Shown: positions 16,217 through 25,142, numbered from the stretch's first letter. The stretch is 64,000 bases of DNA from Spirochaetia bacterium (GCA_963677925.2 CAXXYH010000004.1:1248001-1312000), one strand, 5' to 3'. Numbers and translations: made by a program. The notes: generated from the sequence alone by a model not told the origin.

Positions 16217-16326
16217 GTCTGGTGATAATAGAGAGGGGGACCCACCCGTTCCCATTCCGAACACGGAAGTTAAGCCCCTCTTCGCCGATGGTACTGCGTT
16301 AGCGGGAGAGTAGGTCATTGCCAGGC
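16217..16326 (+). rRNA. rrf: 5S rRNA
   Basis: CCCGTTCCCATTCCGAACACGGAAGTTAAG, GCCGATGGTACT, GAGAGTAGG; terminal helix GTCTGG/CCAGGC. Confidence 0.97.
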
Positions 16327-16752
16327 TTTTTTTTATTAATTTCAAAAAGCAGTATTACAATTCTTAACTTTTAAAATAATCACTCCCGCTAACGCGTGAA
16401 CTGATGTAACTTTTTTCACGTAAAATCTATCTAAACTAATAATTTGCGGGACTACGTTAGGCCCCATAGGCTCACCCTGAAAGTAGCACAGCAGGCTTAG
16501 CCTGATGTATAGTAGGTCATTGCCAGGCTTTTTTTTATTAATTTAGACCAACGGTCTAAATTAATAAAATATGAGACCTAAGAAGAGCTTGAAGTTTGGT
16601 AATACCAAACTTCAGAGAAAGTTCTGAATATTAAGCGGTTATATAAACCAATAGAAGTCTGGAAGATAACCAGAGATAAAGGGCAGCAAAGCCACTTTCT
16701 CCGGTCATTGGAGAAGCCTTAGGCATCTATGCCAGGCTTTTTTTATTAATTT
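16309..16752 (+). repeat. Three direct copies of the 5S rRNA 3' end plus T-tract, delimiting two ~200-bp non-coding units
   Basis: AGTAGGTCATTGCCAGGC(T8)ATTAATTT is identical at 16309-16342 and 16511-16544; TGCCAGGC(T7)ATTAATTT recurs at 16730-16752. Confidence 0.92.
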
Positions 16753-16820
16753 GCTAATCATTTAAAATATACTTTCGTTATCAGCATACTGCACTTATAA
16801 TTTATTTGTGAGGTAAAGCA

Positions 16821-19004
16821 ATGCGTAAGAATGTAATCTTCGCATTCAAAAAGTTTTCGTCAAACAAAAATATTTTTATAAGTATAATATCTGTTTTTAT
16901 CATAACTCTTTTCTTTCCAAACAGTATTTTTTCTGAAGATCAATTTAGAAAAATTACAGTAGTCTATCCATATAATATGGCTACTGATTGGGACATGGCT
17001 TTTAATCAGAAATTTTACAATTCGATTATTATAAAAAGAGGAACCAATACCAGAATATCTTTTTTGAATATCAAATACAGTCTTGAGGATAATATAAATA
17101 GAAGAGTTAACCTTGTGCCGCAGATTGACTTAATTAAAGAAGAATACCAGCCTGATTTAATAGTTGCCATGTTTTCATCTGTACAGAATTTGTTTTTAGA
17201 TTTGGAAGATGATTCTTTAAATCAGATTGACAAGATATTTGTCCCAGTGGTTCCGCAAATGTTTGAGGAGCTTAATAAGATACCAAATTCGTTTATCATA
17301 CAAAGTTCATCCGGTTATGCTATAGAAAATAATATATTAAGTTTTAAAAATTTGCTTCCACAAAGAAGGCATTTAATTGTTGTGAGCGGTGCGGGTGAGA
17401 ACGACAGCCCATACCTTGATATGTTTAAAGCAAAAGTTAAAAAATTGTCAATGGATGAATATTATTCAATAGATTATATAGTAGGGCAGACTGAAGAAGA
17501 CCTGATTAATTCAATAAAAGAATTAAGTTCTAAGAACGGTATCTTGTATTTTCTCCCATACAATATGGACACTGAAGATAATGTTTATGAATTATCTTAT
17601 CTATTTCCAATAATTTATGAAAATGCTGATATGCCTGTATTCTCATTTTTTAATGATACAATCCCTTTGGGAGCTGTCGGCGGTATTATGACAAGCCCGG
17701 AGGCTTACGGTAGTTTTTCCGCCGAAGTCGCATTAAAAATATTAAGCGAAGGAAAGATTGATAATACGGAAGAGCAGACCGCATATGTGCATCAATATAA
17801 CTGGCTTGAATTGAATAAATGGGGTATTGATGAAGCCAAATTGCCAGATGATTGTGAAATACTTTATAAGCAGTATACCTTCTTTCAGGAATATAAATCT
17901 CGAATTATTTTTGTAGTTATTCTTGTTTTTCTGGAAACATGTCTTATTGTTGCCTTGTCATTTAATTTGGTTAAAAGAAAGCGTGCAGAAATTGAACTGA
18001 GAAAAAACGAAGGCTTTTTTGAAAGAACCGAAAAAATAGCCAAGCTGGCGGGATGGGAAATTGATAATATATCTAAACAATTGATACTGACAAAAGAAGC
18101 GCGGCATCTTCTAGGGGCACCAGTTGATAAACCAGTAGTAATAAAGTCAATATTGAAGAATATAGAAAGATCATATCTGCATGAGTTTATTCAGGCAGTT
18201 CATAGCGTAAATAAAAATAATTCTATCGATTGTGTAATTAGATATAAAACCTACTCCGAAAATTATTCCTGGTTAAGAATTGCAGGAGGCCCTGTCAGAA
18301 TCAACAGCAGGTTGACAAGAATGTCAGGAATTATTCAGAATATCACGGTTGAAAAAGAAAACGAACTAAGGCTTACGAAGATATTAAACGAAAAAGAAAT
18401 TCTTTTAAAAGAGGTTCATCACCGTGTAAAAAACAATCTGGCCATCATTTTATCAATAATTGAACTGCAGAAAGCCGCTTTTGAAGAACCCGTAATAAAT
18501 GAAATTTTACAAAAAACTCAGGGGCGTGTTCGAACAATTGCTTTGATATTTGAACTATTATTCCTGGATAATGAGGTAGAAGAAGTCAATCTTAAGAATT
18601 TTGTAGATATGCTTGTAAATTCAATTATCTCAGAAAATTGGGATAAGGGCCCCGGACTTAAAATTGAACTTAATGTTAGTGAAATTTCAATGAAACTTGA
18701 GATGTTATTTCCTATTGGTCTGATTATAAATGAGCTTGTAGATAATGCTCTACGGCATGGCCTGTATTCAGTCGATATTCCGGAATTGACTGTTATAGCT
18801 GATATTATAGATAAGAGAGAGAATCAGCTTTATATAATAATCCGCGATAATGGGCGCGGGTTTAAGAATATCGAAAATGAATCAGGGAAAAGTAAAACTG
18901 TAGGTCTTTTTTTGGTAGAAACACTTGTTGAGCAGCTTGATGGAATTTTTAAAAAAATTACAGAGGAAAACACAGTATTTGAAATTAGAATACCGTTAAA
19001 ATGA
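16821..19004 (+). CDS. Orphan sensor histidine kinase (extracytoplasmic binding-protein-like domain, TM, PAS-like, HisKA_2/HATPase)
   Basis: LLKEVHHRVKNNL H-box, NELVDNALRHG, DNGRG, VGLFLV; GAVGG and NWLELNKWGI resemble ABC-type sensor domains. Confidence 0.85.
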   Translation: MRKNVIFAFKKFSSNKNIFISIISVFIITLFFPNSIFSEDQFRKITVVYPYNMATDWDMAFNQKFYNSIIIKRGTNTRISFLNIKYSLEDNINRRVNLVPQIDLIKEEYQPDLIVAMFSSVQNLFLDLEDDSLNQIDKIFVPVVPQMFEELNKIPNSFIIQSSSGYAIENNILSFKNLLPQRRHLIVVSGAGENDSPYLDMFKAKVKKLSMDEYYSIDYIVGQTEEDLINSIKELSSKNGILYFLPYNMDTEDNVYELSYLFPIIYENADMPVFSFFNDTIPLGAVGGIMTSPEAYGSFSAEVALKILSEGKIDNTEEQTAYVHQYNWLELNKWGIDEAKLPDDCEILYKQYTFFQEYKSRIIFVVILVFLETCLIVALSFNLVKRKRAEIELRKNEGFFERTEKIAKLAGWEIDNISKQLILTKEARHLLGAPVDKPVVIKSILKNIERSYLHEFIQAVHSVNKNNSIDCVIRYKTYSENYSWLRIAGGPVRINSRLTRMSGIIQNITVEKENELRLTKILNEKEILLKEVHHRVKNNLAIILSIIELQKAAFEEPVINEILQKTQGRVRTIALIFELLFLDNEVEEVNLKNFVDMLVNSIISENWDKGPGLKIELNVSEISMKLEMLFPIGLIINELVDNALRHGLYSVDIPELTVIADIIDKRENQLYIIIRDNGRGFKNIENESGKSKTVGLFLVETLVEQLDGIFKKITEENTVFEIRIPLK

Positions 19005-19053
19005 ACTGTACTTATTTATTAATTGAAGTTAAAATAATTCCGGGAGAAAAAAT

Positions 19054-19392
19054 ATGAAAAAGTCAAATTTATTAGTTCTTATCTTTATATCATTTATTTT
19101 AATTGGATGTAATTTGTCCGGTAATTCAATTCTTTTAATTAATGAAACTGAATATACTGTATTTTTCGAATACCGTGACGGTTCTAAAGATAATGGTGCA
19201 GATAATATGGTGACAGCTGAAATAGCTGCAGAATCTGATTTAACCCTGAATGATGTCGAACTATGGGGTATTGGATCTGAAAAAGAGTTATTATACTCTG
19301 GTGCATGGACAGATGAAGGCGTTGATATTGATGTAAACCAGCTGCCTGGAACTGTCTTATGGCCACTAACGGTCAGATTTACGGAAGAGTAG
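19054..19392 (+). CDS. Hypothetical lipoprotein
   Basis: MKK leader with LIGC lipobox, acidic mature part, GGAG RBS. Confidence 0.7.
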   Translation: MKKSNLLVLIFISFILIGCNLSGNSILLINETEYTVFFEYRDGSKDNGADNMVTAEIAAESDLTLNDVELWGIGSEKELLYSGAWTDEGVDIDVNQLPGTVLWPLTVRFTEE

Positions 19393-19397
19393 AATCT

Positions 19398-24809: not shown

Positions 24810-24893
24810 GCAGCAGTGGTGGAATTGGTAGACACGCTAGCTTGAGGGGCTAGTGGGCGTTCGCTCGTGGAGGTTCAAGTCCTCTCTGCTGCA
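24810..24893 (+). tRNA. tRNA-Leu(GAG); CCA not encoded
   Basis: GCAGCAG/CTGCTGC acceptor stem, GGAATTGGTAGACAC D-arm, CTAGC-TTGAGGG-GCTAG anticodon arm, long variable arm, GGTTCAAGTCC T-arm. Confidence 0.96.
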
Positions 24894-24894
24894 G

Positions 24895-24934
24895 ATAAAA
24901 AAAGGCTATCCGACAAAGGATAGTCTTTTTTTAT
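24895..24934 (+). terminator. Intrinsic terminator after tRNA-Leu
   Basis: AAAAAAAGGCTATCC/GGATAGTCTTTTTTT hairpin. Confidence 0.85.
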
Positions 24935-24946
24935 CTGTACTCAGAA

Positions 24947-25096
24947 AGAGAGGACTTGAACCGGAGCTTCGGTGCGAATACTTGGAGCGCAAAACTGCGA
25001 GGATGCAGTTTTAGAAGCGTAGGCGGGTTGTAGTGAGCTGTCCGGATACAGCGACTGAAAACCAAGTCCTCGGAGAACCTTCGGTTCTCTGCTGCA
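24947..25096. repeat. tRNA-linked non-coding element with inverted and direct copies of the tRNA-Leu 3' end
   Basis: 24947-24962 is the exact reverse complement of tRNA 24872-24887; CAAGTCCTC (25063-25071) plus TCTGCTGCA (25088-25096) rebuilds the tRNA 3' end around a 16-bp hairpin insert. Confidence 0.88.
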
Positions 25097-25107
25097 ATAT
25101 AAATAGT

Positions 25108-25142
25108 AAGAGATTAATCAATGATGATTAGTCTCTTTTTTT
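25108..25142 (+). terminator. Second terminator, after the duplicated tRNA 3' end
   Basis: AAGAGATTAATCA/TGATTAGTCTCTT stem plus T-run. Confidence 0.75.

Follow-up and report, generated by a model that had tools for sequence, protein, structure and literature searches.

The tRNA-Leu(GAG) gene and the 5S ribosomal RNA (rRNA) gene found in a 64,000-nt stretch of DNA from a Spirochaetia bacterium (GCA_963677925.2 CAXXYH010000004.1:1248001-1312000, hereafter the window) are each followed by small non-coding modules, every one of which closes by repeating the 3' end of the preceding gene. These units are spirochaete counterparts of the tRNA-linked repeats (TLRs) of Escherichia coli: they are located behind a stable-RNA gene, on the same strand and usually after a first terminator, and each of them ends with the last 11-20 nt of its host gene (hereafter the echo). 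Three families are present in this genome, namely a structured module linked to tRNA and transfer-messenger RNA (tmRNA) genes and two modules linked to 5S rRNA, named A and B. What is new here are the families and the phylum, as the kind of layout is already known from E. coli; its occurrence in a second phylum means that the TLR-type layout is no enterobacterial oddity. Literature searches returned no account of such units in spirochaetes, and Weinberg 2017, a 26-genome study and the Minerva preprint treat these bacteria in other contexts only. With a probability that we put at about 0.55, the units act as small RNA (sRNA) modules produced by terminator read-through, which would reuse the 3'-end maturation signal of their host and change in copy number via recombination.

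The tRNA-linked module

The window contains one rrn operon and, further 3', the tRNA-Leu(GAG) gene. The last 11 nt of this tRNA (24883-24893) recur as a direct copy at 25086-25096, at a spacing of 203, while a perfect inverted pair of 16 nt connects its T-arm (24872-24887) with positions 24947-24962. A scan of the 50 stable-RNA genes identified in this 5.04-Mb genome (46 tRNA genes, tmRNA and three 5S genes), in which stretches of 10 nt or more shared with the final 40 nt of each gene were searched within 400 nt, revealed a downstream direct copy that was not explained by a neighbouring tRNA gene in eight cases (the three 5S genes, Leu-GAG, Arg-TCT, Ala-CGC, Leu-CAA and Pro-GGG). For five of the 50 genes an inverted copy was identified as well, located 53-56 nt downstream at the 5S gene of rrn1, Leu-GAG and Arg-TCT, and 244-245 nt downstream at the 5S genes of rrn2 and rrn3, where a B unit precedes. 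The same search in the upstream flanks, performed as a control, gave matches inside tRNA clusters only.

Some loci of this genome (G000) carry other arrangements. Two echo units of ~65 nt follow tRNA-Leu(CAA) (G000:C4:143242-143381) and one of ~90 nt, comprising a GGCACTCCGCC-type hairpin, follows tRNA-Pro(GGG) (G000:C3:1217662-1217796), in both cases without the R1 core described below; short tRNA-Pro units like the latter are also present in G009 (L024) and G072 (L161). A classical 13-kb island is located at tRNA-Glu(TTC) (G000:C4:2146906-2160040), with a repeat of at least 30 nt that spans the whole T-arm and an integrase-like open reading frame (ORF) directly after the tRNA.

The Leu-GAG, Arg and Ala units have core motifs in common, and relatives of this bacterium carry units behind various tRNAs. 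An exact-pattern scan, performed on one genome per species, identified 87 stretches, 80 of which were fetched. Twenty-five of these 80 hold a tRNA, which in all 25 cases is on the same strand and ends ~75-80 nt upstream of the pattern, and all of the corresponding records are titled as spirochaetes; none of the non-spirochaete matches among the 80 fetched loci holds a tRNA. From an alignment of 21 units a fold was derived that consists of a closing helix P1, formed by the inverted T-arm copy and the echo, a helix P2 enclosing P3 and P4, an invariant AGGCGG and a hairpin P5. In this alignment 86.3% of the cells are paired, compared to 72.0% in shuffles (a value reached by none of the 500) and 32-41% in slid controls. 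The covariation score amounts to 0.416 compared to 0.162 after shuffling (again 0 of 500 reaching it), and both sides change in 20 of the 37 pairs. P1 comprises half of the T-loop, one strand of the T-stem and 2-3 nt more, so that both arm boundaries lie inside the T-loop. An extension of P1 through the acceptor strand was suggested by eye at a few loci and was not supported by the pairing test discussed below.

A covariance model of this fold (R1) gave three matches in its own genome (Leu-GAG, Arg and Ala) and none to units A and B. Of the 151 sampled genomes of the class (88 genera), 51, from 38 genera, contain the R1 family, and the number of copies reaches 21 in a single genome. Its linkage to tRNA genes is strict: within the fetched loci, a tRNA on the same strand precedes 85 of the 87 distinct copies. 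These tRNAs belong to 16 species and are located within 90 nt upstream of the copy in 58 cases, and one further copy lies behind tmRNA. In two complete genomes 15 of the 16 loci are found behind tRNA or tmRNA, the sixteenth being a decayed remnant beside insertion-sequence ends. The family is a tRNA/tmRNA-linked, multi-hairpin module of roughly 145 nt with strong covariation, and it holds well over a hundred copies. Rfam, searched at gathering thresholds and with E up to 5, contains no family for the units; only the 5S and tRNA genes passed, and weak matches to whalefall-1 and to microRNA families represent hairpin noise.

The surroundings of the tRNA-linked units show some recurrent features. 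The same insertion-sequence-like end, ACTGACGCCAGTATTGAYGCC, is present just 3' of units at tRNA loci in different genomes (L021/L095, L044, L103, L174), and the downstream sequence of L021 resembles, by eye only, the last part of a DDE-type transposase gene. Some units (L175, L170, L066 and the G001 unit of L020) contain an additional, optional hairpin module (GTACC.GAGGCC ... GCGAGGAAC), which either follows the inverted arm or separates the tRNA from the terminator.

The 5S-linked modules and the rrn arrays

Two modules, A followed by B, are located behind the 5S gene of the window and each closes with a copy of the 5S 3' end (Table 1). A direct repeat of 34 nt, D1, in which the final 18 nt of 5S are followed by a T-run and ATTAATTT, is 100% identical between 16309-16342 and 16511-16544; a third copy (16720-16753) is degenerate (62%), and the successive spacings are 202 and 209. 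The 3' part of unit B, with GTCTGG at 16657-16662 and GGTCAT...GCCAGGC at the end, keeps both strands of helix I of 5S. The units end in GCCAGGC followed by a T-run, as does 5S itself, with the exception of one B copy that ends in GCCAGGT.

The three rrn operons of the genome contain two, three and four units, in the orders A-B, B-A-B and B-A-B-B. The copies of unit A (n = 3) are 99.5-100% identical and the B units have diverged. The fold of unit B is more stable than that of its shuffles (z -4.85), none of 200 being equally stable. Analysis with RNAalifold of 12 B units from three taxonomic families gave one long-range helix with compensatory change in five of its eight pairs; local hairpins of the B units, visible by eye and left unaligned by MAFFT, are not part of this helix count. 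The 13-nt inverted copy and the echo are retained in A-like units of another genus, arranged in tandem in G006, and the 13-mer is found in A-like units of both G006 and G010. Two 5S ends at a distance of 177-207 nt, searched as a strict pattern, occur in 8 of 401 genomes of the class, an undercount given that the pattern misses known variants, and the reversed pattern occurs in none. The assembly was checked against unitigs of one DNA run, which tile 5S, A, B and flank without differences and show A at a depth of ~2.7x that of the flank; this run may be the source of the assembly itself, so that the agreement does not constitute independent support.

An earlier note on the window, written from its sequence alone, had described the 3'-end echo layout at 5S and tRNA-Leu, and sequence comparison confirmed the positions and unit lengths it gave (spacings of 202, 209 and 203). 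The inverted near-3' copies mentioned there are exact in unit A (13 nt) and in the tRNA unit (16 nt), and the layout it expected at other RNA genes is indeed present at tRNA-Arg and tRNA-Ala in this genome and at 16 tRNA species plus tmRNA across the class. The proposal that the three units of the window form one element family, conserving structure and length rather than sequence, does not hold: R1, built on the tRNA units, matches neither A nor B, and the core of the tRNA family has invariant stretches. A shared covarying fold, for which the same note had suggested a covariance model as a check, is present in the tRNA units, and the model does not extend to the 5S units.

Table 1. Position of the 5S-linked and tRNA-linked units, and of their host genes, in the window.
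Feature	Position	Strand	Evidence
5S rRNA gene, host of the first array	16218..16326	+	Rfam RF00001, 97.5 bits
Unit A, spacer: T-run, ATTAATTT, A+T-rich stretch	16327..16382	+	Sequence; partly inside the 34-nt repeat D1
Unit A, inverted copy (13 nt, exact) of 5S 16296-16308	16383..16395	+	Repeat pair I2
Unit A, interior	16396..16510	+	99.5-100% identity across three rrn operons
Unit A, direct copy: 5S 3' end (18 nt), T-run, ATTAATTT	16511..16544	+	Family D1, 100% identical to 16309-16342
Unit B, hairpin-rich module; 3' part like 5S minus its middle	16545..16737	+	Sequence, fold
T-run and ATTAATTT closing unit B	16738..16753	+	Third D1 copy
tRNA-Leu(GAG) gene, host of the tRNA-linked unit; CCA not encoded	24810..24893	+	ARAGORN, Rfam
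Terminator hairpin T1 with A-run and T-run flanks, terminator-like in both directions	24892..24937	+	Pair I1, 20-nt arms, 95%; also listed as a minus-strand terminator-like site
Exact 16-nt inverted T-arm copy, forming the 5' strand of closing helix P1	24947..24962	+	Pair I2; P1 in minimum-energy fold
Conserved core: P2 enclosing P3 (conserved 11-nt loop) and P4, AGGCGG, hairpin P5	24963..25062	+	Model R1, 123 bits; covariation in alignment
Echo of tRNA 3' end: CAAGTCCTC (3' strand of P1), 18-nt inserted hairpin, TCTCTGCTGCA = tRNA end	25063..25096	+	Repeats, fold
Second terminator T2, sequence unlike T1	25108..25144 (hairpin 25108-25137 + T-run)	+	Terminator listing

Boundaries, copy number and exchange of the units

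Among the units that come first in their array, 51 of 58 have a T-run in the spacer, and in 46 of 58 this T-run is also preceded by a stable hairpin, indicating that a unit normally follows a first terminator. An exact 8-nt echo was found in 46 units. Sixteen of these are located inside arrays, where the identity continues into the terminator repeat; in the remaining 30 it extends beyond the tRNA end by 0 nt (13 cases), 1 nt (9), 2 nt (4), 3 nt (3) or 5 nt (1). In none of the units with an exact 8-nt echo is the echo followed by CCA, and an encoded CCA is missing from the tRNA genes inspected. Unit A has an echo of 18 nt; that of the Leu-GAG unit is divided by a hairpin into 9 + 11 nt, and the Arg and Ala units have echoes of 15 nt and 17-20 nt, respectively. 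In other genomes exact echoes reach 18 nt.

Arrays take the form tRNA-(terminator, inverted copy, core, echo)n, with near-identical tandem arrays of up to five full units (in G072), and more than ten of them finish in a terminator, an inverted copy and a core that is cut at a varying point. The sister species G001 provides an empty site at tRNA-Ala(CGC), where the tRNA is directly followed by the flank; the genome under study carries a 176-nt insert bounded by a 20-nt repeat, which runs 3 nt beyond the tRNA end. At tRNA-Arg the difference between the two genomes is more complex, and at tRNA-Leu(GAG) they have arms and flanks in common with different core subtypes. Variation in presence of the units, anticipated in the earlier note, is found at tRNA-Ala, and variation in their order among the rrn arrays.

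The identity of the cores tracks neither the host tRNA nor the genome: a Met core was found to be 0.88 identical to a Pro core, compared to 0.79 to the best other Met core. Arms, on the other hand, match the local tRNA in every unit compared. As the cores are not grouped by host, they appear to have been moved or exchanged between tRNA types with the arms still fitting the local gene. Near-identical cores at different tRNAs within one genome were not seen, the best value being 0.79.

Comparison with the TLRs of E. coli and with other known systems

According to Stenum et al. (2021, PMC8144298), the 22 TLRs of E. coli are distributed over ten loci in tRNA or rRNA operons, each locus comprising one to five of them, and the terminal 18-19 bp of a TLR match exactly the 3' end of the gene that precedes it. 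Three of them, rrA, rrB and rrF, are described there as located between T1 and T2 behind 5S and as made by T1 read-through; the rrB RNA has 173 nt and ends 3 nt past the repeat, its ends fit RNase E sites, and the authors proposed the repeat to be a processing signal (PMC8144298). Earlier work on TLRs cited in the same text includes Egan and Landy 1978 and Rudd 1999. In our own inspection of E. coli K-12, tyrT (RttR/rtT RNA) was found to contain three 178-bp units, each with a G+C-rich hairpin core, a 19-nt echo and, at 60 nt from the start of the unit, a 10-nt inverted copy of the T-arm, and the array closes with a partial unit. The Rfam family of these repeats is RtT. In rrB a 13-nt echo of 5S is present, without an inverted 5S copy of at least 8 nt.

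The spirochaete units resemble the TLRs in their position, immediately 3' of tRNA or 5S genes and in the same orientation, in their length of ~170-200 nt, in their number of one to five per locus and in a 3' end equal to that of the host gene (18-19 bp in E. coli). They share with the 5S-linked TLRs the location between two terminators, and with the tyrT TLRs the inverted T-arm copy ~60 nt into the unit, the G+C-rich hairpin core and the partial unit at the array end. The layout is not new in kind, since the TLRs already show it behind tRNA and 5S genes. Homology of the TLRs to the spirochaete core was considered and is not supported: local alignment gave z values from -1.4 to 4.0, with scores within those of shuffles except for one 12-mer, and with R1 the tyrT units scored 2-3 bits and rrB 11.9 bits, the latter with E 0.005 for 2.4 kb of searched sequence. 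Two hairpins were also observed in rrB (L189:294-436), one of them T-arm-like (CAAATCCGC/GCGGATTTG) and the other, with the loop CAGGACG, similar to P4 and P5; this resemblance to the spirochaete core could be due to distant kinship or to convergence.

Several differences separate the two groups. The spirochaete echo is without CCA, because these tRNA genes encode none; RNase E/G, unlike in E. coli, was not found in the spirochaete genome; and the spirochaete family, besides belonging to another phylum, is much larger, with its 16 host tRNA species and tmRNA, up to 21 copies per genome and a fold supported by covariation. This family, unrelated in sequence to the TLRs, offers a testable fold and a defined core, which the 22 copies of E. 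coli could not provide.

Other systems share part of the anatomy. A direct repeat of the 3' part of a tRNA is regarded as a footprint of integration at tRNA genes (tDNA), as stated in PMC9897764. The units have this repeat, as well as presence/absence variation between relatives, in common with the partial tRNA genes left by the integrases of islands, phages and integrative and conjugative elements; unlike those, they consist of an insert of only ~180 nt without an integrase, they comprise an inverted arm as well as a core that is both structured and conserved, and they also occur at 5S. The tRNA-Glu island of the same genome has neither inverted copy nor core. As to remnants of attachment (att) sites of the type left by cis-mobilisable elements (CIMEs), the inserts of 176-203 nt hold no ORF and no recombinase domain was found in ten neighbouring ORFs. 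The units differ from miniature inverted-repeat transposable elements in that their arms vary with the host tRNA and their copies lie almost only behind tRNA genes, and from short interspersed elements or retron-like elements in that the reverse transcriptase domain RVT_1 was found in neither their own genome nor more than one of five unit-rich genomes. A further parallel is offered by 3'ETS-leuZ and similar sRNAs, described in PMC8144298 as cut from the spacers of tRNA or rRNA precursors by the processing enzymes of the host RNA. Like these, the units are proposed to give a non-coding RNA from the same transcript as the stable RNA, released by its processing enzymes; sRNAs of the 3'ETS-leuZ type lack, however, the echo of the host 3' end, the inverted copy and the tandem arrays.

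Neighbouring genes and candidate enzymes

Fourteen ORFs of at least 90 aa overlap the region 16700-27500, ten of which were scanned against Pfam after four short overlapping ORFs had been dropped. None of the ten contains a recombinase, reverse-transcriptase or HUH domain, and four of them match no family, in agreement with the absence of a nearby integrase that the earlier note had remarked upon. RVT_1 was not found in the genome under study or in four of the five unit-rich genomes, and was found in one. Reverse-transcriptase-based copying was rejected on this basis, and the RNA-templated process put forward in the earlier note has no support from the echo either, which is never followed by CCA. 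RNase Z is encoded in the genome (351 bits).

Origin and possible role of the units

In the sRNA reading, RNA polymerase passing the first terminator would transcribe the module. Since the module ends in the sequence of the host RNA, the host 3'-end maturation machinery would trim it at the same point, and this trimming would free a discrete sRNA whose production keeps pace with that of tRNA or rRNA. Echoes and terminators, being repeated, would at the same time serve as recombination substrates, through which units could multiply, vanish and reorder. Transcription, processing and any cellular role are inferred; the stop of the echo at the RNA 3' end, the position of the unit after a first terminator and the precedent in E. 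coli support this reading.

A number of findings weigh against it. The last ~7 nt of the echo, corresponding to the acceptor strand, pair in cis in 42.3% of cases compared to 39.9% in shuffled sequences, and with an unpaired acceptor strand the unit is no simple acceptor/T minihelix; such a minihelix is the kind of substrate that RNase Z cuts. Neither an RNase E/G domain nor RNase M5 was found in this 99.6%-complete genome, so that the processing enzyme of E. coli is not transferable and the enzyme must be a different one; RNase E and RNase M5 were accordingly discarded as candidates. The helices of the tRNA-linked family are nearly all Watson-Crick, with 34 G-U against 23 A-C pairs, counts that do not decide the strand, and the folded molecule may be a single-stranded DNA structure rather than RNA. 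Unit A, folded alone, shows no extra stability compared to shuffles (z -0.18). The TLRs themselves have been known since 1978 and their function is given as unknown in PMC8144298. Finally, three features are left unexplained by the processing logic: the retention of a perfect inverted copy of the host, the more than ten arrays with a truncated last unit (terminator, inverted copy and partial core), and the match of both arms to each new host tRNA.

These three gaps keep alive the reading of the units as non-autonomous mobile DNA elements that target the 3' ends of stable-RNA genes and copy both arms from the target at insertion. Such copying might proceed through copy-choice or template switching, for which the T-loop offers a near-universal sequence, or might be primed by fold-back of the terminator hairpin, and the core would be the recognition site of the enzyme. 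We regard this reading as unlikely, though the most serious of the alternatives. It would account for the tRNA-Ala site, cleanly filled in one species and empty in another of the same genus, with its 20-nt repeat, for the host range of 16 tRNA species plus tmRNA, for cores that are not grouped by host (Met-Pro 0.88, Met-Met 0.79) and yet have locally matched arms, and for the Leu(GAG) locus with flanks and arms in common with the sister species and different core subtypes; the arm boundaries within the T-loop, the variably cut last cores, as from abortive copying, and the almost purely Watson-Crick helices point in the same direction. However, neither a candidate enzyme domain in the ten neighbouring ORFs nor RVT_1 in the genome itself and in four of the five unit-rich genomes was found, copies away from tRNA are rare (2 of 87 plus one degenerate locus), and the lack of near-identical cores at different tRNAs within a genome (best 0.79) means that retargeting would be old or rare. 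The echo, moreover, mostly ends at the RNA 3' end, which fits selection on RNA better than a DNA cut site.

Integrase scars and by-products of DNA structure fit the conserved covarying core poorly. The former would be att duplications at tRNA genes with decayed remnants of integrative elements, as in CIMEs. Williams is said to have described in 2002 the direct repeat from T-loop to 3' end as the classical footprint of tDNA integration, and the units have such a repeat; an empty and a filled site exist, and the genome does hold a classical tRNA-Glu island with an integrase-like ORF. The repeat of that island, however, is at least 30 nt long, spans the whole T-arm and comes without inverted copy or core, a core of fixed size that covaries over 38 of 88 genera is unlike random decay, and this explanation is at odds with the same layout at 5S, with arrays of identical units and with an echo that ends at the RNA 3' end; we consider it very improbable. 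Improbable, to a slightly lesser degree, is that the units are DNA-level by-products of break repair or fork stalling behind heavily transcribed genes, kept as extra terminators or insulators. At some loci the tRNA 3' end, the terminator and the inverted copy form a long palindrome (compare the microRNA-hairpin noise in Rfam), the units are found behind the most heavily transcribed genes and terminator-like sites bound each of them; against this, the invariant core stretches and the compensatory changes require selection on a folded molecule, and in general there is no support for a palindrome that continues without gaps into the acceptor strand.

A broader idea, which we offer as speculative and hold to be somewhat more doubtful than the mobile-element reading, is that TLR-type modules constitute a cross-phylum class that rebuilds both arms, complementary and identical, from each host gene by T-loop copy-choice, without a dedicated adjacent recombinase and with the core as handle for a host enzyme. 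If true, this arm rebuilding would represent a new, target-templated mode of mobility and would also account for the E. coli TLRs, unexplained since 1978. The rule that the echo ends at the RNA 3' end, together with the natural empty and filled sites, makes the choice between processed sRNA and mobile element directly testable.

Additional observations

The units are unannotated and will mislead callers of tRNA fragments and of island boundaries; they also indicate where copy number is unstable behind rRNA and tRNA genes. The rrn operons also differ in the tRNA gene of the 16S-23S spacer, which is tRNA-Ile in the operon of the window (12821-12896) and tRNA-Ala(TGC) in the other two (G000:C4:2169762, 2197750).

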